Source: Clostridia bacterium (GTDB lineage: Bacteria > Bacillota > Clostridia > Christensenellales > CAG-138). Taken from it: a stretch of DNA of 64,000 bases. Below the pieces are notes generated by a model. That model worked only from the letters and a program-made list of their open reading frames with translations. It had not been told where the DNA came from and searched no databases. Each line of letters opens with the position of its first letter. Position 1 is the first letter of the stretch. The stretch covers positions 17,270 through 81,269 of the forward strand of contig JAFYHI010000052.1 in the NCBI GenBank assembly GCA_017539215.1, given 5' to 3'. Of the stretch, positions 9,627 through 62,901 are shown in pieces. The position numbers were made by a program, and so were the translations under genes.

Positions 9627-9718
9627 AGGTCGGTAAGCCGCTCCATGTCGGTTATAAGCCGCGCTCTTTCGGGCGCGCACCGCAGCTTGGGCGAGATCTG
9701 TTAAGGAGGAGTTTCCGA
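9627..9718 (+). ncRNA. 5' leader of the L21 operon (candidate L21 ribosomal-protein leader)
   Basis: 5' UTR of about 90 nt between the promoter and the SD AAGGAGG, containing a GC hairpin cgcgc-tctttcgg-gcgcg. An L21 autoregulatory leader is known in Bacillota. I cannot verify the consensus by eye. Confidence 0.4.
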
Positions 9719-10024
9719 ATGTACGCTATTATCGTTACCGGCGGTAAGCAGTACAAGGTCGAGCAGGGCGACGAGATCCTCGTTGAAAAGCTCGACGCCG
9801 AGGTTGGCGCTCAGGTCGATTTCGACGTACTGATGATGGCTGACGGCGACGCCGTAAAGGTCGGCAAGCCCTATGTCGAGGGCGTTTGCGCCAAGGCAGA
9901 GGTCGTTGAGCACGGCAAGGGCAGGAAGGTTATCGTCTTCAAGTACAAGCCCAAGAAGAATATTCGCAAGAAGCAGGGCCATCGCCAGCCGTACACCAAG
10001 GTCAGGATCCTTTCCATCGGTTAA
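9719..10024 (+). CDS. rplU: 50S ribosomal protein L21
   Basis: [25 protein letters not shown] is a canonical L21 N-terminus. Confidence 0.97.
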
Positions 10025-10036
10025 GAGGGTCACGGT

Positions 10037-10369
10037 ATGACCACGGTTACCGTCAACTACAGGTGCGGCAGGCCCGCAGGGTTCAGGGCAAAAGGCCACA
10101 CGGGCTATGCGTCCTCGGGCGAGGATATAGTCTGCGCGGCGGTATCGGCCCTTACCCAGACAGCGTATCTCGGCCTTGCCGAATACGTCGGCGGCGTCAC
10201 CGCCGAACAGTCCGACGGCGAGCTTCGCGTTTCCCTCTCCGAGGCGTTGAGTCCGGAGGGGCAGAGGGCGGCGGAGCTGATACTCGGGACCATGCTCCTG
10301 GGGCTTGGTTCCATTGAGGAAAATTATAGTGACTATCTCAAAATCGTAAAGAAGGAGGTCAAGGCTTAA
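10037..10369 (+). CDS. prp: ribosomal-processing cysteine protease Prp
   Basis: 110 aa located between rplU and rpm[25 protein letters not shown] carries the His/Cys dyad typical of Prp (YsxB). Confidence 0.9.
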
Positions 10370-10370
10370 T

Positions 10371-10661
10371 ATGTTCAAATTCGATCTTCAGCTTTTTGCA
10401 CATAAGAAGGGCGTAGGTTCTTCCCGCAACGGTCGTGAAAGCGAATCCAAGCGTCTGGGGCCCAAGCGTGCAGACGGTCAGTTTGTCCTCGCGGGCAACA
10501 TTCTCGTCAGGCAGCGCGGTACTCATTTCCATCCCGGCGCCAACGTCGGTATCGGCAAGGATGATACCCTCTTCGCCAAGGTCGACGGCGTGGTCCGTTT
10601 TGAGACTAAGCACGGCGGTTACAAGTGCGTAAGCGTCTATGAAAAGGAAGAGATCGCGTAA
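10371..10661 (+). CDS. rpmA: 50S ribosomal protein L27 (with Prp-cleaved N-terminal extension)
   Basis: [24 protein letters not shown]: the Firmicute pro-sequence ending in FA followed by the HKK L27 core. Confidence 0.97.
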
Positions 10662-11024: not shown

Positions 11025-12839
11025 ATGACCAGGAAACTCTTAAGCCTGCTCGTCGCGGCGCTCATGGTGCTTGCGCTCGTTCCCATGGGCGCGGCTGCAA
11101 GGGGCGATGCGGCTCATCGCAGCGGCACCCGTGCGGCGGCCGTTCCCACCAGGGACGTTGACGTAGACGGTTCGCTTCTCTTCGAGAACTTCGACGGTGA
11201 CAATCTGACCAACCCCAACTGGTGGACCTACAATGCCGACGGTAACACCGCCACTTCCGGCAGCTACGACTTCTCCAACTGGGTCTGGATGACCTATGGC
11301 GAGGGCAGCGCATACAGCGGCACCGATGTATTTGCTTCGTTCTCCTATTACAGCGGCAGCTCATGGACTCAGGACAACTGGCTTGTAACTCCGGATCTTA
11401 CCATCCCCTCCACAGGCTACTATTTCAGCGTTTATGTAAAGGCATACAACGCCTCCTACCGCGATAAGCTCTCCATACTCGTCGGCGAGTACGGCGTGGC
11501 TTATGATGATGAGTCCATCGATACCACCGCATGGACGGTAGAGATCCCCCTCACGCAGGTTCCCGCGGACTGGACGCAGTGGACGGTCGATCTTTCCGCC
11601 TATGCCGGCAAGACCATTGCGATAGCCATGCGCCATGCCGACACCGATATGTGGGCAGCTCTCGTTGACGACGTCAACGTCGGCCTCACCGGCAACCCGC
11701 CGCCCACTCCCGAACCCACTCCCGAACCCACTCCCGAACCCGATCTTGGCGATCTTGTCGAGGGTTATTACTTCGAAGAGGGCTCCAATGCCGAGGACTT
11801 CACCTTCATCGATAAGGACGGCGACGGCTTCAACTGGGAGTGGCAGGAGACCCTTCCCGAAACCGGCCAGATGACTCCCTACGAGGGCGAAGGTCTCATC
11901 TACTCCGCCTCCTATGATAACGATGCGCAGGCGCCGCTGACCCCCGATAACTGGGCGATCTCTCCTGCGGTCACCCTGCCCAACGAGACCGCGGCCGTCA
12001 CCCTTTACGCCAAGGGCCAGGATGAGAGTTACGCGGCCGAGAATTTTGCCATCTACTGCGGCGCCACCGCCGATCCCGACCAGATGACCAAGGTCGGGGG
12101 CGACTTCACCGCCACCGGCGAGTACGTCAAGTACATGGCCGATCTCACCGCGTATGCGGGCCAGACCGTTTACATTGCCGTCCGTCACTATAACATAACC
12201 GATATGTTCTTCCTCAACGTCGACCAGGTTGAGGTATGGGGCACCGCTTCCGAGGAGCCTCCTGTAACCACCCACACCGTAACCTTCGTTGACGGGCTCA
12301 CGAACGAGCAGATCGAACAGGTCGTCGTCATTGACGGCGATGCTGCCACGGCTCCCGATGCACCCGAGCATGAGGGTTACCACTTCACGGGTTGGGACGT
12401 TGACTTCTCCAACGTAACGAGCGACCTCACGGTCATGGCGCTTTACGAGATCAACCAGTATCTCGTGACCTTCGTCGACTGGGACGGCAATGTTCTTGCC
12501 AAGGATTACGTCAACCACGGCTCCGCCGCTGTGCCTCCCGCCGATCCCGAGCGTGAGGGCTATACCTTCATCGGTTGGGACGTTGACTTCTCCAACGTCA
12601 CCGGCGACCTCACCGTCACCGCCATGTATGAGGAGAACGAAGTACCTCCCACTGTCCTCATCGGCGACGTCAACTGCGACGGCGTCGTGACCGCGTCCGA
12701 TATCTCCTCGCTCTTTGCCTACGTTATGAACGCAGGCTCGCTCTCCGAGCAGGCTCTGCTTAACGCCGACATCGACGGAAACGGCACGGTCAACGCGACC
12801 GACGCAAGCCTCCTTGCCCAGATGGTATTCGGCGCATAA
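11025..12839 (+). CDS. secreted dockerin-containing protein with two cleaved-adhesin/choice-of-anchor-J-like domains and two Listeria-Bacteroides (Flg_new) repeats
   Basis: Signal peptide MTRKLLSLLVAALMVLALVPMGAAA. Two paralogous domains of about 170 aa (DNWLVTPDL..., DNWAISPAV...) are joined by a PTPEPTPEPTPEP linker. Two repeats of the type H/Y-x-VTFVD...EGY-x-F-x-GWDVDFSNVT-x-DLTV. C-terminal type I dockerin GDVNCDGVVTASD ... ADIDGNGTVNATD. SD AGGAGGA. Confidence 0.85.
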   Translation: MTRKLLSLLVAALMVLALVPMGAAARGDAAHRSGTRAAAVPTRDVDVDGSLLFENFDGDNLTNPNWWTYNADGNTATSGSYDFSNWVWMTYGEGSAYSGTDVFASFSYYSGSSWTQDNWLVTPDLTIPSTGYYFSVYVKAYNASYRDKLSILVGEYGVAYDDESIDTTAWTVEIPLTQVPADWTQWTVDLSAYAGKTIAIAMRHADTDMWAALVDDVNVGLTGNPPPTPEPTPEPTPEPDLGDLVEGYYFEEGSNAEDFTFIDKDGDGFNWEWQETLPETGQMTPYEGEGLIYSASYDNDAQAPLTPDNWAISPAVTLPNETAAVTLYAKGQDESYAAENFAIYCGATADPDQMTKVGGDFTATGEYVKYMADLTAYAGQTVYIAVRHYNITDMFFLNVDQVEVWGTASEEPPVTTHTVTFVDGLTNEQIEQVVVIDGDAATAPDAPEHEGYHFTGWDVDFSNVTSDLTVMALYEINQYLVTFVDWDGNVLAKDYVNHGSAAVPPADPEREGYTFIGWDVDFSNVTGDLTVTAMYEENEVPPTVLIGDVNCDGVVTASDISSLFAYVMNAGSLSEQALLNADIDGNGTVNATDASLLAQMVFGA

Positions 12840-37227: not shown

Positions 37228-37303
37228 GCTGGTGTAGCTCAGTAGGTAGAGCACTTCATTGGTAATGAAGAGGTAGGCAGTCCGAATCTGCTCACCAGCT
37301 CCA
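37228..37303 (+). tRNA. tRNA-Thr (anticodon GGT), CCA encoded
   Basis: Cloverleaf read by eye: acceptor GCTGGTG/CACCAGC, D-arm GCTC-AGTAGGTA-GAGC, anticodon stem CTTCA/TGAAG with loop TTGGTAA, T-arm GGCAG-TCCGAAT-CTGCT, discriminator T, CCA. Confidence 0.9.
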
Positions 37304-37307
37304 TGAA

Positions 37308-37347
37308 AACCCCGGAAACCTTTGGTTTTCGGGGTTGTTCTTTTTTT
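37308..37347 (+). terminator. rho-independent terminator after tRNA-Thr
   Basis: 13-bp stem aaccccggaaacc / ggttttcggggtt (one G-U pair), loop ttt, then GTTCTTTTTTT. Confidence 0.8.
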
Positions 37348-37366
37348 GGTGCTTTGTCAGAGACCT

Positions 37367-37414
37367 CCAAAACCCAAACCAAAACCCAAACCAAAACCCA
37401 AACCAAAACCCAAA
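37367..37414. repeat. perfect 12-bp x 4 tandem repeat (CCAAAACCCAAA)4
   Basis: Four exact head-to-tail copies at 37367-37378, 37379-37390, 37391-37402 and 37403-37414. The complementary strand reads (TTTGGGTTTTGG)4. Confidence 0.95.
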
Positions 37415-37420
37415 CGGGGC

Positions 37421-37450
37421 AAAAAAGCAGGCCTTTCGACCTGCTTTTTT
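37421..37450. terminator. short bidirectional terminator-like hairpin
   Basis: AAAAAA-gcagg-cctttcga-cctgc-TTTTTT. Confidence 0.5.
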
Positions 37451-37549
37451 GCACGAATTTACCTATTTTAGGAGCTCTTCAACAACTCGTGCGCTGCCCT
37501 GTATTTGTGAAGAAGGGCGACTGTTGCCAAAAAGCTCCAAAGCAAGCGG

Positions 37550-37578
37550 TTGAATATGATGAGCCGGTATGGTAGAAT
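37550..37578 (+). promoter_or_regulatory. predicted SigA promoter
   Basis: TTGAAT (37550-37555), 17 nt, TAGAAT (37573-37578). Confidence 0.5.
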
Positions 37579-38389: not shown

Positions 38390-40537
38390 TTATCCCTTGT
38401 ACTCGATGCAAAGCATCGTAAGGTCGTCGAACTGTTCCGCAGTTCCCACAAACCCGCCGAGGCTCGTACGGATGTGTTCAAGCAAACCTTCGGGAGACGC
38501 TTCCTTTGCGCTGTTCAGCATTTCAAGCATACGCTCCGTGCCGAGCATATCGTGCCCGTCCGCGCCGCCCATCGCCTCGGGCAGGCCGTCCGTGTAGACG
38601 AACAGTTTGGAACCGGGCTCCATCGTGATCTCGTACTCGCGGTAAGGCACGCCCGCCATGGCGCCCACAACAAGGCCGTGCGGGTCGCGGAACAGCTCAA
38701 AAGCGCCTCCCGGCTTTTTGATGGCGGGGTATTCGTGTCCCGCGTTGGCGGCGGTCAGCCTGCCGGAGGAAAGCTCCAGCACGCCGACCCATACCGTTAC
38801 GAACATCTGCTCCTCGTTGTTGGAGCATATCGCGTCGTTGGCCCGTTTCAGTATTTCGGCGGGCGAAAGACCCATGTTCGCGTAGCTTTGCAGCATTATT
38901 TTGGAGGCCATCATGAACAGCGCCGCGGGCACGCCCTTGCCCGATACGTCGGCGATAACAAGCCCCAGGCGGTCTTCGTCTATCAGGAAGAAGTCGTAAA
39001 AGTCGCCGCCGACCTCCCTTGCGGGATCCATCACGGCGTAGATGTCAAATTCGCTGCGGTTGGGGTATGGCGGGAATATAGTGGGCAGCATGGCCGCCTG
39101 TATGCGGTTTGCAAGCGTCAGCTCGGTGCTTATGCGCTCCCTTTCGGCGGTAATGCTCTCAATATCGCTTATGTAGTTTTTCATTCGTTCGGTCATGGAG
39201 CCGAACGAGTTTGCAAGCATCTGCGTTTCGTCGCCCGTGTCAAGGTCCCACTTAAAGTCAAGATTGTCGCCCTCTATCTCGCCCACGGCCTCGGTAAGCC
39301 TGCGAATGGGCTTTACGATCCTGCGCGAAAGCGCGTACGACGCCACAAGCGCCACCGCCACCGCCGCGGCGCCCAGGCCCAGCAGCAGATATACGGCGTT
39401 CCGTATGTGGCTCCTCGCATTTTGTGAGGCCTGCTCGGTCAGCGAATCGACGCTTTCAAGCAGTTTTTTCGTGGGGGCCTCCACCGCATCACGGGTAAGG
39501 AACACCAGCATAGACCAGCCTACCGTATCCATCGGCGCGTATGAGGCATAGCTCGGCACGCCCTCAATGTTCAGCGTCATAACGCCGGAGCCGCCGTCCG
39601 CGGCCTTTGTCACAAGCTCCGAAAGCTGTGCGTCGCTTGAGCTGCGCAGGTCGTCCGAAGCCTCCGCCGCGGCAAGCACGCCGCTCTCATAGGTCGAAAA
39701 CAGCACCTGTCCGCTGCCGTTTATTATGCAGGCGTTCCCGCTTTCGCCAAGCTTAACGCTTTTTACAAGGTCCTCCATCTCATCAAGGTACATGCCCGCG
39801 CCGGCAACGCCCATAAGCTTACCGTCCGCAAACACGGGCACGCCGCACATTATACCAAGGCGCGGCGTGTGCGCGTCCTTCGTTACGGGGGTAAAGAACG
39901 GCTTGCCCGTTACGGCTGCGCCGACGTACCACGGGCGCTGCCTGGCCTCAAGCGGCATGAGCGCGCCGTTCTCGTCGAATTTCTTGCCGGAGATATAGTC
40001 CGCCTGCACCATGAAGCCCGATTCGGCAGCAAAGTAAATCGACGCGATATTGTCCGTGTGTTCGTTCACCGCCATAAGCACGTCCTGCACGTTGCCTATC
40101 AGCCCAAGCTCGGCGATAATACCCGGGTCGTCGGGGTCGGCCTCTGCGGAGTACAGCACCTGCACCGAAAGCTTGCCGTCGTTTGCGGGGTCGGGCAGGG
40201 GAACCGGCCTTGCGGAGTACGCGTCGGGGTCGGCATAAATGCTCTCCGCAACCGAGGCCACCGTTACGACGCCGCGCCGATAGTCCGAAAAGATCCCATC
40301 GGCTATATCCGCCTTCTCTGCCGCAAGCTCAAGAAGACGGTTCTGCGACTGTTCTGACATATAGTCAGATGAAGCCCTGCCGATAGTGTCGCTCAGGTTT
40401 TCATTGGACGATGAGAGCGTTTCAGATGCGTTCCTGACCGTCAGCGCAAATATCCCCGCCGCCGCCAGCAGCATGACGATAACGAGTATCACCATGGCAA
40501 AGAGTATCTTTGTCCCGAGGGACCGTGGTTTTTCCAT
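38390..40537 (-). CDS. membrane sensor phosphatase: TM - Cache-like extracytoplasmic domain - TM - HAMP - PP2C/SpoIIE-type serine phosphatase
   Basis: 715 aa. Two TM helices bracket a periplasmic-type domain of about 330 aa. A HAMP-like segment (RRIVKPIRRLTEAVGEI) follows. The C-terminal PP2C motifs are EVGGDFYDF, VIADVSGKGVPAAL, AANAGHEYP and TDGLPEA. Confidence 0.85.
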   Translation of the reverse strand: MEKPRSLGTKILFAMVILVIVMLLAAAGIFALTVRNASETLSSSNENLSDTIGRASSDYMSEQSQNRLLELAAEKADIADGIFSDYRRGVVTVASVAESIYADPDAYSARPVPLPDPANDGKLSVQVLYSAEADPDDPGIIAELGLIGNVQDVLMAVNEHTDNIASIYFAAESGFMVQADYISGKKFDENGALMPLEARQRPWYVGAAVTGKPFFTPVTKDAHTPRLGIMCGVPVFADGKLMGVAGAGMYLDEMEDLVKSVKLGESGNACIINGSGQVLFSTYESGVLAAAEASDDLRSSSDAQLSELVTKAADGGSGVMTLNIEGVPSYASYAPMDTVGWSMLVFLTRDAVEAPTKKLLESVDSLTEQASQNARSHIRNAVYLLLGLGAAAVAVALVASYALSRRIVKPIRRLTEAVGEIEGDNLDFKWDLDTGDETQMLANSFGSMTERMKNYISDIESITAERERISTELTLANRIQAAMLPTIFPPYPNRSEFDIYAVMDPAREVGGDFYDFFLIDEDRLGLVIADVSGKGVPAALFMMASKIMLQSYANMGLSPAEILKRANDAICSNNEEQMFVTVWVGVLELSSGRLTAANAGHEYPAIKKPGGAFELFRDPHGLVVGAMAGVPYREYEITMEPGSKLFVYTDGLPEAMGGADGHDMLGTERMLEMLNSAKEASPEGLLEHIRTSLGGFVGTAEQFDDLTMLCIEYKG

Positions 40538-44973: not shown

Positions 44974-45045
44974 CATCCGAACAAAGCTCCTCTCATATAA
45001 TACCACAGGCGTATTGCCTCAATGTATTTTGTGGGAGGTTTTTTT

Positions 45046-45300
45046 ATGGCGCAAACTACGTATTCCGAGCTTAAGCGCAAGGAGATAATCAACGTTTGCG
45101 ACGGAGCGCGGCTCGGCTGCATATCGGACCTGGAGCTTGACGACTGCACGGGGCTCATCAGCGCGATAGTCGTGCCCGGCGCAGCGCGGTTTCTGGGGCT
45201 GTTCCGCGGCCCGGAGGAGCTCGTCATACCCTACTGCCGCATAGAGAAGATAGGCGACGACGTGATACTCGTCCGCGTTGAGAACGCACCGGTAAAATAA
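45046..45300 (+). CDS. YlmC/YmxH-family sporulation protein (PRC-barrel)
   Basis: 84 aa. SELKRKEIINVCDGARLGCISDLELD...IVVPG...VIPYCRIEKIGDDVILV matches the YlmC/YmxH pattern. SD GGGAGG. Confidence 0.85.
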   Translation: MAQTTYSELKRKEIINVCDGARLGCISDLELDDCTGLISAIVVPGAARFLGLFRGPEELVIPYCRIEKIGDDVILVRVENAPVK

Positions 45301-47341: not shown

Positions 47342-47403
47342 TCATAACGGCCCCGGCCCCCGCATAGTATTGACCGAGCAAAACCAAGGGGGCTGTGCCA
47401 ATG
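47342..47403 (+). promoter_or_regulatory. candidate sporulation-sigma (SigE-like) promoter and leader of the spoIIIA operon; copy A of the shared module
   Basis: TCATAAC (47342-47348), 14 nt, CATAGTAT (47363-47370). Compare the SigE-type pattern ATA-N16-18-CATAcanT. There is no SigA-like -35. Leader CGCATAGTATTGACCGAGCAAAACCAAGGGGG is nearly identical to 36542-36503 on the minus strand. Confidence 0.35.
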
Positions 47404-48288
47404 AAAACACGATTCGAAAAGCTGCTCTCGTTTCTGCCGGAACGCATCGCCCGCGCTGCGGCCTCGGCCGCAGGCGGCGCGGCGGTGGAGGAGCTGCGTC
47501 TGCGCACCGCAAGACCGCCCCAGCTCGTGTTCGCCAACGGCGACGCGTTGGCCGAGGGCGTTGTTTTTACGCCCGACGACGCCAAAGAACTGCTGGAGCG
47601 GCTTTGCCGGCACTCGGTCTATTCGCACGGAGAGGAGCTTGCAAACGGCTTTATAACCGTCGACGGCGACTCCCGCGTGGGGGTCTGCGGCAGGCCCGTC
47701 ACGGAGGGGGGCAGGGTCGTCAGGCTGACCGAGATAACGGGCTTCAATATGCGCGTTTCATACGAGGCCGTGGGCTGCGCCGAGGCGGTGATGGGCCTTT
47801 TGACGGAGGGCGGCTCGCCCGTTTCCACGCTGATAGCCGCGCCGCCGTCGGGCGGCAAAACAACGCTCCTGCGGGACGCCGCAAGATGCTTTTCGTACGG
47901 CGTCGGCGCCCGCCCCGTCAAGGTGGCGGTAGCGGACGAACGCGGCGAGCTTGCCGGGTTTATCGACGGAGCGCCCTCGTTTGACCTCGGCCCGCGCACC
48001 GACGTTATGGAGCTTTGCCCCAAGGCGGCGGCGATACCCATGCTCATACGCTCCATGAGCCCCGACCTTGTCATAACCGACGAGGTGGGCGGCGGCGCCG
48101 ACGCCGAGGCGCTCTCGGAGGCCGCGCGGTGCGGCGTCAGGGTCATTGCCTCCGCTCACGCCTCCTCGGGCGAGGAGCTGTTGGCGCGAAAGGACCTAAA
48201 GCCCATATTGAACTGCGGCGCATTTACGCGGGTGCTGCTGCTGAAAAGGAGCGGCAGCAGGCTCACCGTCTGCCCCGTGGCGCTGTGA
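47401..48288 (+). CDS. spoIIIAA: stage III sporulation protein AA (ATPase)
   Basis: About 295 aa. Walker A APPSGGKTTLLRD, Walker B LVITDEVG. First gene of an eight-gene array. ATG 47401 is preferred over GTG 47395 because of SD spacing. Confidence 0.9.
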   Translation: MKTRFEKLLSFLPERIARAAASAAGGAAVEELRLRTARPPQLVFANGDALAEGVVFTPDDAKELLERLCRHSVYSHGEELANGFITVDGDSRVGVCGRPVTEGGRVVRLTEITGFNMRVSYEAVGCAEAVMGLLTEGGSPVSTLIAAPPSGGKTTLLRDAARCFSYGVGARPVKVAVADERGELAGFIDGAPSFDLGPRTDVMELCPKAAAIPMLIRSMSPDLVITDEVGGGADAEALSEAARCGVRVIASAHASSGEELLARKDLKPILNCGAFTRVLLLKRSGSRLTVCPVAL

Positions 48289-48770
48289 GCGCGGCAAGGC
48301 TCGTTCTGGCGCTCGCCTCTGTCGCCGCGTGCGCGGCCTTCGGCAGGCTGGCGGTGTCGGAGGACCGCAAAAAGCTCAGCACGACCGAAGCGTTTTCGGC
48401 TTCGCTCCTTGAGGCGGAGCGGCGCATTCGCATAGACCGGCTCCCGCTTACGGAGCTTGCAAAGGCGATAGCCGACGAAGCCCCGGAAAGTCCCCTTCCG
48501 CAGATGCTGACGCTGATCTGCGAGGGCAGGCGCGACGCCGCCTGCGGGCTTTCGTCAATGCTCGTCCCCGCCGCGCAGACGCCCGCCGCAGAGCTTATTC
48601 GGGGCATGGGCCGGGGCGACGTCAGCGCCGAAACGCAAAGGCTTGCGCTTGCGGTGGAGCGCATTGGCGCGGCTGCCTGCAAAGCGCGCGAGCAGCATGA
48701 AAAAAGCGCGCGCCTGACAAATGCGCTCTCGCTTATGCTCGGGGTTGGCGCGGCGCTCGTCATACTTTGA
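48285..48770 (+). CDS. spoIIIAB: stage III sporulation protein AB
   Basis: 161 aa with TM helices at both ends and a GspF-like helical middle. Position in the operon. The GTG start overlaps the AA stop (GTGA). Confidence 0.8.
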   Translation: MSAARLVLALASVAACAAFGRLAVSEDRKKLSTTEAFSASLLEAERRIRIDRLPLTELAKAIADEAPESPLPQMLTLICEGRRDAACGLSSMLVPAAQTPAAELIRGMGRGDVSAETQRLALAVERIGAAACKAREQHEKSARLTNALSLMLGVGAALVIL

Positions 48771-48786
48771 TCCATGCGAGGTACAA

Positions 48787-48981
48787 ATGGGCATTGAGGT
48801 AGTCATGAAATTAGCGGGCATAGGCTTTTTGACCGCGGTCGCGTGCCAGCTTTTGAAGCAGGCGGGCCGCGAGGATATCGCCATGATGACGGCGCTTGCG
48901 GGGCTCGTCATAGTGCTTGTCACGGTCGTTTCAATGGTGGGCCAGCTGATGCAGTCCGTGCGCGGAGTGTTCGGCCTGTGA
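48787..48981 (+). CDS. spoIIIAC: stage III sporulation protein AC
   Basis: 64 aa. MGIEVVMKLAGIGFLTAVACQLLKQAGREDIAMMTALAGLVIVLV is a typical two-TM SpoIIIAC. Confidence 0.9.
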   Translation: MGIEVVMKLAGIGFLTAVACQLLKQAGREDIAMMTALAGLVIVLVTVVSMVGQLMQSVRGVFGL

Positions 48982-49379
48982 CGGCGGACCCCTTTGCGGT
49001 CGCAGGAGCCGCGGTGGTCTGTGCGCTGCTTGCGCTGTCCCTGCGCCCGTTCGGCGGCGGCCTTGCCGAAAGGACGGCGCTCGTTGGCGGGCTGATACTT
49101 CTAATGTGGGCGGCGGGAGAGATCAGCGGCGTTTTTTCCCGCATACGCGCGCTTTTGCAGCAGGCCCCGGGCTTTGACGGCGCGGCGTCGCTCGCGCTTA
49201 AAGTCACGGGCGTCGCCTACGTTGCCCAGACCGCCTCCGACCTCTGCCGCGACTGCGGCGAGGAGGGCCTTGCCTCAAAGAGCGAGCTGTGCGGCAGACT
49301 GCTTATGCTGATCGCCGTAATGCCTCAGCTTACTTCGCTTGCATCGCGCCTCATTGCCCTTGCGGAGGAACTGCTGTGA
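48978..49379 (+). CDS. spoIIIAD: stage III sporulation protein AD
   Basis: 133 aa, four TM segments. SDLCRDCGEEGLASKSELCGR resembles the conserved SpoIIIAD loop. GTGA overlap with AC. Confidence 0.85.
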   Translation: MTADPFAVAGAAVVCALLALSLRPFGGGLAERTALVGGLILLMWAAGEISGVFSRIRALLQQAPGFDGAASLALKVTGVAYVAQTASDLCRDCGEEGLASKSELCGRLLMLIAVMPQLTSLASRLIALAEELL

Positions 49380-50635
49380 CCCGCGCAAAGACCGCCGCCC
49401 TGTTCGCGGCTTTGGCGCTTGCCCTGCTTGCGGCCTTCGCCCCGCCCGCTGCGGCGCAGACCGCCCCGCCCGCGCCTTATTCGGAGGACCCGGCGCAGAC
49501 CGCCCCGCCCGCGCCTTATTCGAATGACCCGGCGTACCCGTCGGCCGAGCCGCTTGCACCGGAGCTTTCAGACGAGCTTTCCCGCCAGACGGAGCTTTTG
49601 GACCTGTCCCCGTGGGAAAGGTATTTTGCGGACGCGAAGGCGTTTTTGGGACGGAGCTTTCAAAGCGTCGACGAAGCGCTCGTGTCCCTTGCGGAGGGCG
49701 GCGGAGAGGAGCCGGGCGGCATACTTTCGGCGGCAGCAGCGGCGGCCGTGCGTGAACTGCGGCCCGCGCTCGCGTCCTGCGCCGTGCTCGTGCTCGCGGG
49801 GCTTCTGACCACGATGGCCTCGGGCGTTCCGGACGAGGGCATAAAAGGCACGCTAACGCTTGCGCTGCTTGCGGTGTGCGCCGGGGCCGCGCTCGAACGG
49901 TTCATATCGCTTGCGCACACGGCGTTTGAGGCGGTCTCTATGACTTCCGATTTTGCCGAAAGCACGCTGCCCGTCGTAAGCACGCTGCTCACGCTGACGG
50001 GCGCTGACGCGGCGCAGGGGCTTTTTCACCCGCTGATGAGTTTCTTATCCGGCACGGTGATCGCGGTAATTTCCCGAGCCGCGCTGCCTCTCTCCTGCGC
50101 CTGCGGTATGCTTCGCGCGGCGGATCCGATCGCGGGCGAGGGCAGGCTTGCGGGCCTTTCGCGGCTGATAAGCCGTGCGGTCAAATGGCTTTTGGGGCTC
50201 GTTTCGGCGGTCTATTTCGCGGTGACTCAGGTGCGCGGCCTCAACGCCGCCGCCCGTGACGGAGTGGCTGTACGCACGGCAAGATATGCCATCGACAGAC
50301 TCGTGCCCGTGGTGGGATCCATGGTCAGCGGCACGGTGGACGGGGTCATGGCATGCTCCCTGCTGATACGAAACGGCGCGGGCACGCTTGCGCTCATACT
50401 GCTGTTTTCGGCGGCGCTCAAGCCGCTTATGGTCCTGGGGTTCGGCGCTTTGAGCTTCAGAGCCGCCGCCGCGCTCTGCCGCCCCGCCTGCGGCCCGCGG
50501 GTGTACGCGCTGTATTCCGGCCTTGCGGATACGGCCTCGGAGCTGTTCGCCTGCACCGCCGCGGCGGTGCTGCTGTTAACGCTTACCCTGTGTGTGTTTC
50601 TGGCCTCGGGCGGCGCCGCCGCCGGCCTATGGTGA
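49376..50635 (+). CDS. spoIIIAE: stage III sporulation protein AE
   Basis: 419 aa with a signal peptide and a polytopic membrane domain. Position in the operon. GTGA overlap with AD. Confidence 0.85.
   Translation: MTRAKTAALFAALALALLAAFAPPAAAQTAPPAPYSEDPAQTAPPAPYSNDPAYPSAEPLAPELSDELSRQTELLDLSPWERYFADAKAFLGRSFQSVDEALVSLAEGGGEEPGGILSAAAAAAVRELRPALASCAVLVLAGLLTTMASGVPDEGIKGTLTLALLAVCAGAALERFISLAHTAFEAVSMTSDFAESTLPVVSTLLTLTGADAAQGLFHPLMSFLSGTVIAVISRAALPLSCACGMLRAADPIAGEGRLAGLSRLISRAVKWLLGLVSAVYFAVTQVRGLNAAARDGVAVRTARYAIDRLVPVVGSMVSGTVDGVMACSLLIRNGAGTLALILLFSAALKPLMVLGFGALSFRAAAALCRPACGPRVYALYSGLADTASELFACTAAAVLLLTLTLCVFLASGGAAAGLW
49453..49530 (+). repeat. 39-bp tandem duplication inside spoIIIAE (encodes AQTAPPAPYS(E/N)DP twice)
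   Basis: ggcgcagaccgccccgcccgcgccttattcggaggaccc followed by ggcgcagaccgccccgcccgcgccttattcgaatgaccc. About 2 mismatches in 39. Confidence 0.9.
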
Positions 50636-50639
50636 TAGA

Positions 50640-50804
50640 ATGCTCAGCGGATTCGTAACAAACCTGATCGCCCTGTCTGCGGGCTTTACGGCGCTGGAAG
50701 CGCTCCTTCCGGGCGGACGCGCTTCGCTTGCGGCGCGGCGATACTTCGCGCTCATAATGACCTGCGCTTTGACAGAGCCTCTGCTTGCGCTTCTGGAGGC
50801 GTGA
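50640..50804 (+). CDS. spoIIIAF: stage III sporulation protein AF, short form (N-terminal membrane hairpin only)
   Basis: 54 aa. MLSGFVTNLIALSAGFTALEALLPGGRASLAARRYFALIMTCALTEPLL resembles the N-terminal 50 aa of SpoIIIAF (…E.LLP…Y…). No C-terminal soluble domain is encoded before spoIIIAG starts. Confidence 0.65.
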   Translation: MLSGFVTNLIALSAGFTALEALLPGGRASLAARRYFALIMTCALTEPLLALLEA

Positions 50805-50805
50805 C

Positions 50806-51198
50806 ATGCAAATCCCGAACGCCGTCAAAAAACTCTCCAAAAACGCCCGTATCGCAGCGGCTGCCGCAGCGCTTCTCATCGCGGCGCTGGCGATCGCGCC
50901 TGCGCTGCGCACGGACGGAGACGCCGCTTCCGCGCCCCAAAACGAGGCCCGGCTCGAGGCCCGGCTTGAGGACATACTCGCAAAGATAGACGGCGCGGGC
51001 AGCGTGCGCGTGTTTTTGACCTGCGAGGACGCGGGCCCGTCCTCAGTATTCGGCGAAAGCCGAAGCACCGCCGTCCGCGGCGCAATAATCGTTTCGAGCG
51101 GGGCAAGGGACATCGCCGTAATGAACGCCCTGCGCGAGGCGGCGGTAAAGGCGCTTGGCCTGCCCGCGTCCTCTGTAGGCGTCTTCCCAATGGAATAA
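50806..51198 (+). CDS. spoIIIAG: stage III sporulation protein AG
   Basis: 130 aa with an N-terminal TM helix. LEARLEDILAKIDGAGSVRVFL ... VRGAIIVSSGARDIAVMNALREAVKALGLPASSVGVFPM is a typical AG ring-building domain. SD GGAGG. Confidence 0.85.
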   Translation: MQIPNAVKKLSKNARIAAAAAALLIAALAIAPALRTDGDAASAPQNEARLEARLEDILAKIDGAGSVRVFLTCEDAGPSSVFGESRSTAVRGAIIVSSGARDIAVMNALREAAVKALGLPASSVGVFPME

Positions 51199-51218
51199 CT
51201 CAAAGAAAGGTGGAACCC

Positions 51219-51743
51219 ATGGAAAAATTAAAGACAAACAAACGCTTTTTCATCGTGCTCGGCTTCGCGCTCCTGCTGCTTGCGGGGGCCGTGTTCATGG
51301 ACCTGAAGCTCGGCAAAGCCAAAACGGAGCCCGCAGAACAGGGCGCGGAGCTTTCCCCGACGGAGGCGCCGGTCAGCGCGGTCATGGCGGGGATCAACGG
51401 GTATTTCAACGAATTCCGCGACGAGCGCAGCCGCGTCCGCGCGCAGGAGATAGACTATCTGCGTTCGGTCATCAACTCCGAAAACACCGATGCAGACGCC
51501 CTTGAGGACGCCCGTGGACGGCTTTTTGAGCTGGTCTCGAACATGGAAAAGGAGTTCACCATCGAAAGCCGTATCCGCGGCAAGGGCTTTACGGATGCGG
51601 CGGCCTCGGTCAAGGACGGCTCGGCGTCGGTCGTAATAGACGGCGCGTCGCTTTCGGATGAGGAGGTGGCCCGCATACTTGACATAATCATAGCCGAAAC
51701 GGGGCTGCCCGCAAGCGCAGTCAGCATTTCTCCGGGGGCATAG
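51219..51743 (+). CDS. spoIIIAH: stage III sporulation protein AH
   Basis: 174 aa with an N-terminal TM helix. YFNEFRDERSRVRAQEIDYLRSVI and ESRIRGKGFTDAAASV..GSASVVI are typical of SpoIIIAH. SD AAAGGTGG. Confidence 0.85.
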   Translation: MEKLKTNKRFFIVLGFALLLLAGAVFMDLKLGKAKTEPAEQGAELSPTEAPVSAVMAGINGYFNEFRDERSRVRAQEIDYLRSVINSENTDADALEDARGRLFELVSNMEKEFTIESRIRGKGFTDAAASVKDGSASVVIDGASLSDEEVARILDIIIAETGLPASAVSISPGA

Positions 51744-59180: not shown

Positions 59181-60866
59181 ATGCTCGAAAGACTTATAAT
59201 CGAAAACGTCGCTTTGATCGACCGGCTCGACCTTGAGCTGGGCCGCGGGTTCACCGTGCTGACGGGCGAGACCGGCGCGGGCAAGTCCATCATTATCGAC
59301 GGTATAGAGCTGGTTTTGGGCGGGCGCGGCAGCCGCGAGCTTATCACCCACGGCAAACAGAAATGCCGCGCGGAGGCTGTGTTCGATATCGGCGGCGAGC
59401 CTCAGGCGCAAAAGGCCCTTGAAGAGCTCGGCATTGAGGCCGAAGACGGCGTCGTCACCATCATGCGCGAGCTTAACGTAAACGGCAAAAGCACGGCGCG
59501 CGTCAACGGCGTGCTGCTGCCCGTTGCAATGCTCAAAACGCTTACGGGCTGTCTTGCGGACATACACGGTCAGCACGAGCATCAGTCCCTGCTTGACGAC
59601 AAAAACCATCTGGGCGTGATAGACGCCTATGGCGAAAAAAGCATCGCTCCCGCCGCCGCACGCACCGCGGAGCTTTACGGCAGGTACGCCGCCGTACGGC
59701 AAAAGCTCAACGCCGGATTCATGTCCGAGGCGGAGCGCGAGCGCCGTATAGATATATTGAAGTATCAGATAAACGAGATCACGACCGCCTCCCCGAAAGC
59801 GGGGGAGGAGGAGAGCATAAAGGAGGAGCTTACCCTGCTCACCAATGCCGAACGCATAGCGGACGCATTGAGCGAAGCGGGCGGTGCGCTGGGCGGCGAG
59901 CCGGGCGCGGTGTCGCTTTTGAAGCAGGCCGCGGATGCGCTTTCGGGCGTGGCGGGGTTCTCCAAACAGTATGAGGAGCTGTCGGGCCGTCTTCTCGACC
60001 TGTATTATGAGGTGGAGGATGCCTCATACACCGTACGCGACCTGCGGCTTTCGGCCGAGTTCGACCCGAAGCGCATCGACGAGCTTGAGGGCAGGCTCGA
60101 CGTGCTTGACGGATTAAAGCATAAGTACGGCCGTACGGTCGGCGAGGTGCTCGAGTTTGCCGCCGCCGCACGGCGCGAGCTTGATTCGCTCACATCCGGC
60201 GCCGAGCAGCGCGAAAAGCTGCAGGCCGAAAAGGCCGCGCTGGAGGCCGAATACTTTTCCGCCGCGGCGGAGCTTACGGACGCGCGCAAAAAGGCAGCAG
60301 GCGAGCTATGTGCGCTTGCCCGCGAACAGCTCACGGCCCTCGGTATGAAAAAGGCCCGCATCAGCGCGGAGTTTTCCGCGCCCGAGTCCCCCGAACCGCG
60401 TGAAAACGGTATGGATGAGGTCAGGCTGCTGCTCTCGGCTAACGAGGGCGAGCCGCTTAAATCCCTCTCAAAGGTTGCGTCCGGCGGCGAGCTTTCGCGC
60501 ATAATGCTGGCGCTCAAAACCGTTATCACGGACGCCGACGGCATACCCACGCTCGTTTTTGACGAGGTCGACACGGGCATCAGCGGGGCCGCCGCAAACA
60601 CCGTGGGCCTCAGGATGAAGCATATCGCCGCCCGCCATCAGGTGCTGTGCGTAACGCATCTGCCCCAGATAGCCGCCTTTGCGGACACGCATTTTGCGGT
60701 GTCCAAGCATGAGGAGGACGGAAGGACCGTAACAAGGGTAAAGCGGCTCGAAGGGGCGGAGCGCCCCGCCGAGCTTGCCCGCATAATGGGCGCGGAGGGC
60801 GATATTTCGGCCGCCGTTTCGCATGCCGAAGAGCTGATAAAAAAAGCCTCCGAAGCCGTTTTGTGA
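59181..60866 (+). CDS. recN: DNA repair protein RecN
   Basis: 561 aa. Walker A GETGAGKS, a long coiled coil, the SMC signature SGGELSR, and Walker B LVFDEVD. Confidence 0.95.
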   Translation: MLERLIIENVALIDRLDLELGRGFTVLTGETGAGKSIIIDGIELVLGGRGSRELITHGKQKCRAEAVFDIGGEPQAQKALEELGIEAEDGVVTIMRELNVNGKSTARVNGVLLPVAMLKTLTGCLADIHGQHEHQSLLDDKNHLGVIDAYGEKSIAPAAARTAELYGRYAAVRQKLNAGFMSEAERERRIDILKYQINEITTASPKAGEEESIKEELTLLTNAERIADALSEAGGALGGEPGAVSLLKQAADALSGVAGFSKQYEELSGRLLDLYYEVEDASYTVRDLRLSAEFDPKRIDELEGRLDVLDGLKHKYGRTVGEVLEFAAAARRELDSLTSGAEQREKLQAEKAALEAEYFSAAAELTDARKKAAGELCALAREQLTALGMKKARISAEFSAPESPEPRENGMDEVRLLLSANEGEPLKSLSKVASGGELSRIMLALKTVITDADGIPTLVFDEVDTGISGAAANTVGLRMKHIAARHQVLCVTHLPQIAAFADTHFAVSKHEEDGRTVTRVKRLEGAERPAELARIMGAEGDISAAVSHAEELIKKASEAVL

Positions 60867-60925
60867 CAGAATAAACAGGCTCTCCGCTCCGAAGAATAAA
60901 CGGGATGATTCTTTTGGAGCGGTGT

Positions 60926-62107
60926 ATGCATTTGATTTTCAGCAGAATAAAACCCTTTGCCGCAAAAAGCGCGGCTCTTGTACTGGCGTTCGCGCTGTTT
61001 GCTTTCGGGCACGGCGGGGCTATGCAGGCCCTGCGCGCCTGCCCGGACAAGGTTTGGGCAGCAGACCGCGCGGAGCTTTACCGCAAACTGGGCTTCAGCG
61101 GCGCTTGGGCGGCCGAGGCGTCGGCCTCCTCCGACGAAACGCTCCCTCCGCAGGCAGGGTTCAGGCTGTTCGGCCTTATCACGGCAAAAAAGGTCGGCAC
61201 GGTGATAGAGGAGCGCAGGTCCGTGTTCCCCGGCGGCGAAGCTGTGGGCATATCGATACGCACCCGGGGGGTGCTCATAGTCGGCTTCGGCTCCGACTCC
61301 GGCAACAGCCCCGCGTACCGTGCAGGCCTGCGTCCGGGCGACGTGGTGATCTCAGTCAACGGCGCGGACGTCGATTCGGCGGAGCAGATAACCGCTCTTA
61401 TGAGCAGCGCGTCCTCACGCGTGACGGCGCTTCGCGGGGGCAAAACAATGGAGTTTACCGTGGAGCGCGGCGAAGACGGCTCGGCGCTGGGCGCATGGGT
61501 GCGCGACAGCACGGTGGGCGTCGGGACGCTTTCGTTCTATAATGAAGAATACTGCGCCGCGCTTGGGCATTCGGTCACGGACGCCGATACGGGCAGGCTG
61601 CTTCAGGCCAAGACCGGCGCGCTCGTTTACGCAAAGGTGCTTGGCGTGGTGCGCGGCAGCCGGGGCGCGCCCGGCGAGATACAGGGTACGTTCGGCGCGT
61701 CAAGCCCCGAGGTCGGTCGGGTGTTTGCCAACACGGAGCTTGGTGTTTTCGCCTCGGTCACGGGGGAGCTTCCGCAAAAAAGCGCCATGCCCGTAGCCTT
61801 TCCCGATGAGGTGCACGAGGGGGAAGCCGTGCTTCTGTCAAGTGCGGACGGTGCGCTTCGGGAGTATTCCTGCCGCATAGTCAAGGCCGTGCGCCAGTCG
61901 TCGCCCGCCGCAAAGGGCCTTGTCATAGAGGTGACGGACGAGCGGCTTATATGCCTGACGGGCGGCATAGTGCAGGGCATGAGCGGGTCGCCCGTCATTC
62001 AGGACGGCAGGCTTGCGGGGGTCGTGACGCATGTTTTCGTAAACGACCCGAAAAAGGGCTACGGCGCATACGCCTACTGGATATTAAAAGCAATGGAGGG
62101 AAGCTGA
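60926..62107 (+). CDS. spoIVB: SpoIVB peptidase (S55 family, PDZ-containing sporulation signalling protease)
   Basis: TM/signal at the N-terminus, PDZ domain (AGLRPGDVVISVNG), and the serine protease motif GIVQGMSGSPV. Position between recN and spo0A. ATG 60926 has SD GGAG. ATG 60905 is an alternative. Confidence 0.9.
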   Translation: MHLIFSRIKPFAAKSAALVLAFALFAFGHGGAMQALRACPDKVWAADRAELYRKLGFSGAWAAEASASSDETLPPQAGFRLFGLITAKKVGTVIEERRSVFPGGEAVGISIRTRGVLIVGFGSDSGNSPAYRAGLRPGDVVISVNGADVDSAEQITALMSSASSRVTALRGGKTMEFTVERGEDGSALGAWVRDSTVGVGTLSFYNEEYCAALGHSVTDADTGRLLQAKTGALVYAKVLGVVRGSRGAPGEIQGTFGASSPEVGRVFANTELGVFASVTGELPQKSAMPVAFPDEVHEGEAVLLSSADGALREYSCRIVKAVRQSSPAAKGLVIEVTDERLICLTGGIVQGMSGSPVIQDGRLAGVVTHVFVNDPKKGYGAYAYWILKAMEGS

Positions 62108-62901
62108 TGAACAAATACCGGACCCTGACCCACAGGTGCCTGTATCTGGGCCGCATCGACAGCTATATCTCGGAGCTTGCGGAACGCTTTTCGCGCTATG
62201 CGCCGCTTGAGCTTCTCGAGGCGGAGGGGCAGAAGGACCTTTTGAAAAAATGCTATGAGTTCGAGCCGATGCTCATTTTGACCCGCGGCGAACCCGATAA
62301 GCTTGCTGCGCTTATGGAATGCGCGGACGATATCTGCTTTCGCCGTGCGGTGTGCATAGTGCTTGCTCCGGCGGAGAGCATCGGTGCGGTAAGGCTCGGC
62401 AGCGAGTCCGTCGTTACCGGGGTCGCCCCCTGCGTGTGGGATCCCGACGACGATATCATTGAGCTCATGCGCGTGTATCGGCGCAGCCTCAAGCTGGGCT
62501 TAAACATCAAAACGCTGTCGGACAGCATGCCCATCGTCACCGACCTGACCTGGTATGACACGGGCCGCGACAGCCTTGTACAGCGCGCAGCCATTTCGGA
62601 CAAGCTTGCGCGGCTTGGGGTAAGGCCGGAGCTTGCGGGGCATAAGTACCTGATCGCGGCGATAGCGCTGCAAAGCGCCGCAAGGATGGCTCCGGAGCCG
62701 ATAAAGCTTTACAGGCGCGTCGCCGCCTATTACAGCACCACGCCGCTTGCGGTCGAAAAGGCCGTGCGCTACGCCATAGAGAGCGCGTGGGTCACGGGCG
62801 ACATATTCTATCAGCAGGAGCTGTTCGGCATGACCGTCAGCGAGGACAGGGGCAAGCCCACCAATGCGGAGTTCATCGCAAGGCTTGCGCTCGATCTGTA
62901 A
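62107..62901 (+). CDS. Spo0A-like regulator: conserved Spo0A C-terminal DNA-binding domain with a degenerate (pseudo-)receiver domain
   Basis: 264 aa. The C-terminal part has GHKYLIAAI, TTPLAVEKAVRYAIESAW and GKPTNAEFIARLA (Spo0A_C hallmarks). The N-terminal part lacks the acidic pocket and the phospho-acceptor Asp (RCLYLGRID; PMLILTRGEP). ATG 62107 overlaps the spoIVB stop by 1 nt. The ORF-track start at 61951 lies inside spoIVB. Confidence 0.8.
   Translation: MNKYRTLTHRCLYLGRIDSYISELAERFSRYAPLELLEAEGQKDLLKKCYEFEPMLILTRGEPDKLAALMECADDICFRRAVCIVLAPAESIGAVRLGSESVVTGVAPCVWDPDDDIIELMRVYRRSLKLGLNIKTLSDSMPIVTDLTWYDTGRDSLVQRAAISDKLARLGVRPELAGHKYLIAAIALQSAARMAPEPIKLYRRVAAYYSTTPLAVEKAVRYAIESAWVTGDIFYQQELFGMTVSEDRGKPTNAEFIARLALDL

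Follow-up and report, generated by a model that had tools for sequence, protein, structure and literature searches.

Can Spo0A do its work without being phosphorylated? The question is raised by a gene in a 64,000-nucleotide (nt) stretch of DNA from an uncultured Clostridia bacterium (Christensenellales; CAG-138; assembly GCA_017539215.1, contig JAFYHI010000052.1, positions 17,270-81,269, forward strand), a stretch that we refer to throughout as the window. The gene, which we call spo0A* (a name that we also use for the family to which it belongs), lies directly behind recN and spoIVB and encodes a protein with Spo0A's DNA-binding domain at its C-terminus and a receiver-like domain at its N-terminus (Table 1). 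According to a 2024 review, every endospore former activates its Spo0A through phosphorylation at a conserved Asp (PMC11210211), and the evolution of sporulation entry has been framed as a matter of which kinases and relay proteins feed that Asp (PMC6136694). An original prediction, made from the DNA letters of the window, held that the Spo0A encoded here has no phosphorylation site at all. We find that this is the case for the window protein, and we consider it probable, at roughly 65%, that spo0A* is a phosphorylation-independent variant of Spo0A.

None of the five residues that form the phosphorylation site of a receiver is kept in the window protein, as judged from profile alignments. The Mg2+-binding acidic pair of strand 1 is replaced by Gly15-Arg16 in all three hhalign runs, the Thr/Ser of strand 4 by Ala87 and the Lys of strand 5 by Cys109, in line with the original prediction. 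It was also right that the acceptor position holds neither Asp nor Glu, but the residue that it named there, Thr59, is likely one position off. The acceptor Asp falls on Arg60 (codon 62284-62286) in three of the four profile alignments, namely those against canonical Spo0A, against the sister group described below and against Asp53 of RR468. It falls on Thr59 in the fourth, an hhalign comparison of the N-domain only. In both AlphaFold2 (AF2) models, moreover, strand 3 ends with Arg60. Because of the three concordant alignments, the location at the strand end and the presence of Glu or Asp at position 60 in most relatives, Arg60 is most likely the acceptor equivalent. Neither Thr59 nor Arg60 is acidic; an Asp at the acceptor in a profile alignment, the finding that the original prediction regarded as fatal to it, does not appear in any of them.

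The predicted structure of the N-terminal half of spo0A* is a receiver fold. An AF2 model of the N-domain alone (predicted local distance difference test score, pLDDT, 91.6; predicted template modelling score, pTM, 0.86) has 136 Foldseek matches in the PDB at E ≤ 1e-3, of which the top 50 are all receivers (template modelling score, TM, ~0.65-0.76; root-mean-square deviation ~3 Å). The full-length model, computed from a 33-member family alignment, has strands at residues 9-14, 34-39, 56-60, 82-87 and 105-108, with a helix after every strand, and a helical C-domain, and the Foldseek matches to its N-domain include the Spo0A N-domain structure 1qmp. At the level of sequence this kinship is visible by profiles only. 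Pfam finds Spo0A_C (PF08769, residues 163-262) as the sole domain of spo0A*, with no match to Response_reg (PF00072) even at E ≤ 10. No family locus is matched significantly by a hidden Markov model (HMM) of 17 canonical Spo0A receivers: most have no match, and the best, L004, reaches 7.8 bits (E 0.011). A phmmer search with the N-domain against 1.84 billion representatives returned just three matches, two of them short fragments and one probably spurious. The family N-domain profile, searched against PDB sequences, reaches RR468, CheY, YycF and AdeR at E 0.03-0.06, and the 21 matches listed are mostly response regulators. Full-length hhalign comparisons of the family with canonical Spo0As drawn from GTDB loci (E 7e-41) and with the Asp-bearing sister group (E 6e-24) run in register across the N-domain. 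The earlier description of the first ~120 amino acids (aa) as receiver-like is thus supported by the modelled (βα)5 fold and its structural matches. We also considered a mis-set start codon that hides a receiver further upstream. This we rejected, as the DNA ahead of the gene encodes spoIVB in a different frame, the N-termini of the family align from Met1, and a Shine-Dalgarno (SD) sequence precedes the ATG.

The unusual protein is not a product of faulty data. Exactly the same protein follows spoIVB on contigs of at least three independent ENA assemblies, and among ten within-species variants only six sites vary, the key positions not being among them. With ~60 relatives in addition, an assembly or sequencing artefact is ruled out, including the error within 62107-62480 that the original prediction had allowed for. 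A search of 5.8 billion proteins yields 63 family clusters, nearly all of full-length proteins of ~265 aa with 34-82% identity and PF08769 as their only domain, and there is no cultured organism among the sources. Relatives carry the NCBI product name 'Spo0A C-terminal domain-containing protein', and one is labelled 'response regulator, stage 0 sporulation protein A' in IMG. For genomic comparison we used the best 80 of 149 matches in GTDB to the motifs GKPTNAEF or IRYAIExAW, one genome per species; the L numbers used here denote loci of the genomic comparison. At least 15 species have a full-length family member. All are metagenome-assembled genomes (MAGs), mostly from the rumen and gut of buffalo, sheep or goat where a source is recorded, and the 16 family genomes compared below are the window and 15 GTDB species representatives.

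Substitution rates indicate that the pseudo-receiver is maintained. When the window gene is compared with L084 (82% identical, dS 0.73) by the Nei-Gojobori method, the ratio of nonsynonymous to synonymous substitution rates (dN/dS) comes to 0.29 in the pseudo-receiver, 0.17 in the linker and 0.08 in the DNA-binding domain, and the pseudo-receivers of L008 and L012 give 0.11. The domain is therefore under purifying selection, relaxed relative to the output domain yet clearly constrained. Since dN/dS is 0.1-0.3 and the open reading frame (ORF) is intact in ~60 clusters, the pseudo-receiver is not decaying. Pseudogene decay can be dismissed on the dN/dS values, and the option, offered in the original prediction, that the switch is decaying is not supported.

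Complete loss of the phospho-site is a property of the window protein and is not uniform over the family. In a census of 69 distinct family sequences, Gly15 is almost invariant, and position 60 is Glu in 31, Asp in 8, Arg in 7, Val in 7 and Pro in 5, with other residues in the rest. Position 87 is Val in 22, Ala in 20, Thr in 11 and Ser in 4; position 109 is Lys in 25, Arg in 8 and otherwise varied. Thus 61 of the 69 sequences are aspartate-less, the other 8 keeping Asp at position 60. Measured against the definition of a pseudo-receiver in PMC12632262, the window protein is without all five residues and the whole family without the first Asp of the acidic pair. As aligned, then, all members are pseudo-receivers in that sense, a majority of them aspartate-less, with the window protein among the most degenerate. 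A neighbour-joining tree rooted on the sister group (L047, L059, L062, L077) shows the family to be monophyletic on a long stem. Its basal branch has Asp, Glu, Ser or Ala at position 60, and its main clade has mostly Glu, together with Lys109. Across the tree position 60 has been replaced independently by Arg/Lys, Val, Pro and Met/Ile, and the subclade of the window (with P0002 and P0003) has Arg60, Ala87 and either Cys or Tyr at 109. The order of events looks like a loss of metal binding, followed by a change from Asp to Glu, followed by free drift.

The same residues bear on whether phosphorylation might merely have moved. A switch operating at a non-canonical site (E62, D64 or D112-D116), or through modification of Ser, Thr or Cys by another type of kinase, strikes us as highly improbable. 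Thr59 and Cys109 are indeed located at the former pocket, and strand 5 is followed by an acidic DPDDD segment in which Asp116 is nearly invariant. However, Thr59 and Cys109 are not conserved in the family, Asp116 lies at the start of helix 5 and outside the pocket in the AF2 models, and receiver-type catalysis does not proceed without the acidic pair and the Lys.

The gene stands at the canonical recN-spoIVB-spo0A locus, as had been predicted. The order recN-spoIVB-spo0A*-phosphopentomutase-like gene is found in 14 of 15 family loci and nadK precedes recN; two loci are cut, L008 before nadK and L018 before recN. The sister group (L047, L059, L077 and L062, the last named 'Christensenellales bacterium') and Dehalobacter likewise have the order recN-spoIVB-spo0A, and RecN identity to the protein of the window (by tblastn) is 60-73% within the clade and 41-46% in the next relatives. 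Its place in this gene order marks spo0A* as the positional orthologue of spo0A, vertically inherited. At least 16 species, all uncultured, make up the clade, and the named organisms closest to it belong to the Christensenellales rather than to the Oscillospiraceae that the original prediction had mentioned as relatives. Within the sister group, Spo0A keeps the acceptor Asp (in DMLMP) and the strand-4 Thr, and the L062 protein (9656-10441) matches TIGR02875 over its full length at 175.6 bits. With N-D or H-D for the acidic pair and Met or Leu in place of the strand-5 Lys, the sister group too is a pseudo-receiver under the strict definition.

One alternative is that spo0A* is a divergent extra copy, in which case a canonical spo0A elsewhere in the genome would run sporulation entry and the copy beside spoIVB would have been freed as an auxiliary regulator. 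Two spo0A paralogues are present in 10 of 118 spo0A-positive genomes, and two or three in 11 of the 118 (Galperin et al., 10.1101/2022.02.25.481979); MAGs of gut Clostridia encode many Spo0A_C proteins with unusual N-termini at places other than the spoIVB locus; and the long stem of the family would fit such a history. Against this, it is the divergent gene that holds the ancestral locus in 16 of 16 genomes, at the very place where the sister group has its Asp-bearing gene. No family assembly occurs twice among the best 80 of the 149 GTDB matches, a weak point given the restricted motifs and incomplete MAGs. We judge an extra copy to be unlikely.

Other Spo0A proteins among these loci vary at the same sites. 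Three near-canonical ones from MAGs of other gut Clostridia (L061:1279-2091, L065:244-1029 and L026:649-1422) have Glu in place of the acceptor Asp (ELMLP, ELLLP and ELVLP) and have lost the second Asp of the acidic pair, with the T/S and K-P positions kept; at 200.8 bits the L061 protein is still at the NCBIfam cutoff for Spo0A. These cases point to the change from Asp to Glu as a first step that recurs. L031, L048 and L082, which come from Candidatus Spyradocola and a Christensenella MAG, have at their spoIVB locus a Spo0A that retains the acceptor Asp (DAVLP or DCAMP), with no acidic pair and only a weak receiver match (12-16 bits); here recN and spoIVB are separated by an additional gene. 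Spo0A_C proteins with a weak or absent receiver match are also encoded away from spoIVB (L020, L024, L083; L021, L028, L039, L076; L027, L030, L033, L034; L055, L057, L080), including in Clostridium sp. CAG:138 and Christensenellaceae. Scored with the canonical receiver HMM, the Spo0A_C proteins of gut Clostridia form a gradient from ~170 bits to 0.

The C-terminal half of spo0A* is a Spo0A_C domain, in agreement with the original prediction and with the PF08769 match listed in Table 1. The C-domain model matches 1lq1 and 1fc3 in the PDB (Foldseek TM 0.76-0.81, 33-39% identity), and phmmer aligns the C-domain to 1fc3 at E 2.6e-15. Tested against TIGR02875, the Spo0A equivalog model, spo0A* scores 71.9 bits for a cutoff of 200, the C-terminal domain alone being matched; its C-terminal domain, receiver fold and position place it with Spo0A, and its curated score does not. 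The recognition helix is altered. The near-universal canonical form is SRVERAIRHAIE and the window reads LAVEKAVRYAIE, with a family consensus of (L/A)AVEKAIRYAIE: SRVER has become LAVEK. Of the helix residues, the Glu persists, as does the second Arg, and Lys stands in for the first Arg. TGTCGAA 0A boxes are not significantly enriched in the window (10 seen against 6.4 expected).

Between the two domains runs a linker that is conserved in the family in the form MPIVT(D/E)xxW(H/N/Y)D, with Trp149 and Asp151 invariant and MPIVT strongly conserved. Residues 140-151 are predicted to be disordered in the full-length AF2 model. The hinge or linker of canonical Spo0A is variable and poorly conserved (PMC3485338). 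The motif may be a docking site.

The junction with spoIVB gives a possible view of how the protein is made. The TGA stop of spoIVB (62105-62107) shares one base with the ATG of spo0A* (62107-62109), and GGAGG lies 7 nt upstream, so that the TGATG junction at 62105-62109 stands as first described. In 16 of 16 family genomes the two genes overlap or are separated by at most 33 nt, with the SD in or just past spoIVB. In the sister group they are 121-125 nt apart, and other syntenic loci have gaps of 54-976 nt. Exact 0A boxes (TTCGACA) open three of the four sister-group gaps, in tandem in L059, and most other canonical loci checked, Dehalobacter included, have 0A boxes and/or sigma H-like or sigma A-like motifs there, which serve as positive controls. 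In the last 400 nt of the family spoIVB genes, a scan for sigma H-like and sigma A-like promoters, though not for 0A boxes, gave single hits in 2 of 16 sequences and nothing conserved, and a generic scan for sigma-70 promoters and terminators around the locus found nothing above shuffled sequences. Set beside its nearest Asp-bearing relatives, the clade has thus lost the stretch between spoIVB and spo0A together with the 0A boxes that it holds, leaving spo0A* without the promoter and 0A-box region that mark a canonical spo0A gene.

A conserved element is found instead upstream of spoIVB. In 12 of 14 family sequences the motif G[ACT]ATA lies within ~10 nt of the stop codon of recN (the two others keep only TATA or AATA), and it is followed ~17 nt further on by AAAAACT or AAGAATA; the sister group has GAATA...CTTAATA. 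This element resembles the consensus of forespore sigma F/G promoters, with its -35 and A-rich -10 regions, and is a candidate promoter of that kind. In C. difficile spoIVB is counted in the sigma G regulon, and in B. subtilis in the regulons of sigma F/G (PMC3789822). We infer that spo0A* is translated from the same transcript as spoIVB.

The sporulation genes of the window were described at the outset as intact-looking, and those of spoIIIA, spoIVB and ymxH are all intact ORFs with matches to their families, weak in the case of spoIIIAB. SpoIVB is intact in 16 of 16 genomes, with an invariant GMSGSP segment at its catalytic motif. Sporulation proteins of this lineage are generally divergent: most of the spoIIIA products score below their NCBIfam cutoffs (AA 256 against 281, AE 121 against 247, AG 41 against 148), and SpoIIIAF was not identified among the spoIIIA genes of the window with NCBIfam or Pfam.

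A further alternative is that spo0A* is a relic in an asporogenous lineage, serving a function outside sporulation or decaying slowly. Spo0A is present in 32 of 42 non-spore-forming Clostridia, as are many sporulation genes (10.1101/2022.02.25.481979). The nearest named relatives of the clade include Christensenellaceae, the described Christensenella species being reported as non-spore-forming (PMC11536998), and 0A-box autoregulation has gone. Outright decay is nevertheless excluded by purifying selection and by the intact ORFs in ~60 clusters, and genes used only for sporulation are intact, among them spoIIIAA-AH, ymxH and, in 16 species, spoIVB with a dN/dS of 0.13-0.33. A relic is in our estimate very unlikely.

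We favour the explanation that spo0A* is a Spo0A variant independent of phosphorylation. At the base of the clade the metal-binding pair would have been lost through replacement of the first Asp by Gly, and the acceptor Asp, kept or changed to Glu in many lineages, would later have been replaced several times independently. The pseudo-receiver would have been retained as a folded module with a structural, dimerisation or partner-binding role. Because the phospho-site residues are missing, the protein is presumably not switched by a phosphorelay or by orphan kinases, and it would act as a DNA-binding regulator in its unphosphorylated state. In this connection, the isolated DNA-binding domain of Spo0A binds its targets unphosphorylated, and the unphosphorylated receiver is inhibitory (PMC3485338). 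With its own promoter and 0A boxes gone and the gene translationally coupled to spoIVB behind a forespore-type promoter, activity would be set by the amount of protein made; partners of the pseudo-receiver or contacts of the MPIVT..W.D linker may also control it.

Several considerations weigh against this explanation. With 8 Asp and 31 Glu at position 60, some relatives might respond to a phospho-donor or be phosphomimics. Binding to 0A boxes is not assured, because the recognition helix has changed from SRVER to LAVEK. The promoter scans used simple consensus patterns, which internal promoters of non-matching sequence would escape, and the sigma F/G reading of the upstream element is weakened by the shortness of the motif. 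The family members all come from uncultured MAGs. The frequencies given above for spo0A paralogues and for Spo0A in non-spore-formers count on the same side.

A more far-reaching form of the favoured explanation is that this is a clade of spore formers with spo0A* alone, in which endospore development is directed by an unphosphorylatable Spo0A whose level is set by the spoIVB operon. We put this forward tentatively, as something possible rather than expected. A master switch once gated by kinases or a phosphorelay and subject to autoregulation would have been rewired into a constitutively competent regulator, made in step with the forespore protease SpoIVB. This would be a natural exception to the rule that endospore formers without exception turn on Spo0A by Asp phosphorylation, and Spo0A would then possibly act in the forespore rather than before division.

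Three further genes of the window deserve mention. The membrane sensor of 715 aa on the reverse strand is a possible partner-switching input. The secreted dockerin protein is what would be expected of a rumen organism that degrades fibre in association with a cellulosome. A small ORF with a (TKTQ)n tandem repeat (…SKTQTKTQTKTQTKTQTG…) lies upstream of a DUF5714 gene.

Table 1. Features of the spo0A* locus and of the rest of the window (position 1 is the first letter of the window)
Feature	Position	Strand	Evidence or remarks
Secreted dockerin protein	11025-12839	+	Cleaved_Adhesin, Listeria-Bacteroides repeats, type I dockerin
Small repeat ORF	37303-37575	+	
715-aa membrane sensor	38390-40537	-	dCache, HAMP and PP2C (SpoIIE-type) phosphatase domains
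ymxH/ylmC-family gene	45022-45300	+	TIGR02888, 78.2 bits (cutoff 44.2)
spoIIIA operon (AA, AB, AC, AD, AE, AG, AH)	47395-51743	+	NCBIfam and Pfam matches; AB weak
recN, upstream synteny anchor	59181-60866	+	ORF; tblastn to related loci
Promoter-like element after recN stop (GAATA, 18 nt, AAGAATA)	60869-60898	+	family conservation
spoIVB, 393 aa (alternative start 60905)	60926-62107	+	Peptidase_S55, E 1.9e-68; TIGR02860, 302 bits
SD GGAGG (62095-62099) inside spoIVB 3' end, with TGATG overlap	62095-62109	+	sequence
spo0A*	62107-62901	+	264-aa ORF; Spo0A_C; profile alignment to Spo0As; conserved synteny
Predicted pseudo-receiver, aa 1-132, (βα)5	62107-62502	+	AF2 domain model; Foldseek
G15-R16, replacing Mg2+-binding acidic pair DD	62149-62154	+	three hhalign runs agree
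T59-R60, end of strand 3; R60 most likely the acceptor-Asp equivalent	62281-62286	+	profile alignments; AF2 strand 56-60
A87, replacing strand-4 Thr/Ser	62365-62367	+	profile alignments
C109, replacing strand-5 Lys	62431-62433	+	profile alignments
Linker motif MPIVTDLTWYD, aa 141-151	62527-62559	+	family-specific; AF2 pLDDT <50; dN/dS 0.17
Spo0A_C DNA-binding domain, aa 163-262	62593-62892	+	PF08769, 82.3 bits, E 2.8e-23
Recognition-helix segment TTPLAVEKAVRYAIESAW	62737-62790	+	canonical TT(P/A)SRVERAIRHAIEVAW; alignment to 1lq1, 1fc3 and canonical set

A conserved Spo0A orthologue that is under selection and has no phosphorylation site would show that a sporulation decision can be wired without two-component chemistry; here, loss of the phosphorylation pocket accompanies loss of the 0A boxes and fusion to the spoIVB operon. 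The family also offers a natural series of steps, from D to E and then to R, V or P, for the change from receiver to pseudo-receiver. There are practical consequences as well. The sporulation potential of MAGs is widely predicted from whether they have spo0A (e.g. PMC11536998), and spo0A* proteins either escape notice, since they do not reach the TIGR02875 cutoff, or are taken for ordinary Spo0A. Likewise, censuses of pseudo-receivers that rely on PF00072 or Pfam would miss them because the receiver is too diverged for Pfam. The original prediction knew of no description of a Spo0A lacking its phosphorylation site; we too found no published account of an Asp-less Spo0A in the literature searched, most subscription journals lying outside it, and a 2025 review of pseudo-receivers does not mention Spo0A (PMC12632262).

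Among the closest known systems is canonical Spo0A itself (B. subtilis and C. difficile; structures 1QMP, 1FC3 and 1LQ1), which has the same layout of receiver fold, linker and Spo0A_C and the same place after recN-spoIVB. Unlike it, spo0A* has all five phospho-site residues replaced and no sequence-level receiver match, overlaps spoIVB without a promoter/0A-box region of its own, has a helix of the form LAVEK..Y in place of SRVER..H, and has a conserved linker where the canonical one is variable. By descent spo0A* is a Spo0A, yet it lacks the phosphorylation site, the curated score and the autoregulatory promoter by which a Spo0A is recognized. For the sister-group Spo0A the synteny is the same, the downstream phosphopentomutase-like gene is 68-72% identical and GAATA lies upstream of spoIVB, whereas the acceptor Asp, the Thr, the full-length TIGR02875 match and the gap of 121-125 nt set it apart from spo0A*.

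Among atypical response regulators, ChxR, HP1043/HsrA, BldM/WhiI and GlnR likewise combine a receiver fold without catalytic residues with a DNA-binding output (PMC4395418, PMC12632262, PMC4125116). Glu is the commonest replacement of the acceptor both in atypical regulators (26%; PMC4395418) and in the spo0A* family (31 of 69). As with atypical regulators, no kinase gene is paired with spo0A* in the window, and as with WhiI and BldM of Streptomyces, spo0A* is placed in a developmental (sporulation) pathway. Where it differs from them is in its output domain, Spo0A_C, which we have not found reported in combination with a pseudo-receiver. Phosphorylation-independent mutants of Spo0A exist in B. 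subtilis in the form of sad67-type receiver deletions. Together with the isolated domain (PMC3485338), these mutants show that the output of Spo0A can work unphosphorylated once the inhibitory contact of the receiver is removed. The sad67-type proteins are laboratory constructs, whereas spo0A* is a natural, conserved and full-length protein that has kept its receiver fold.

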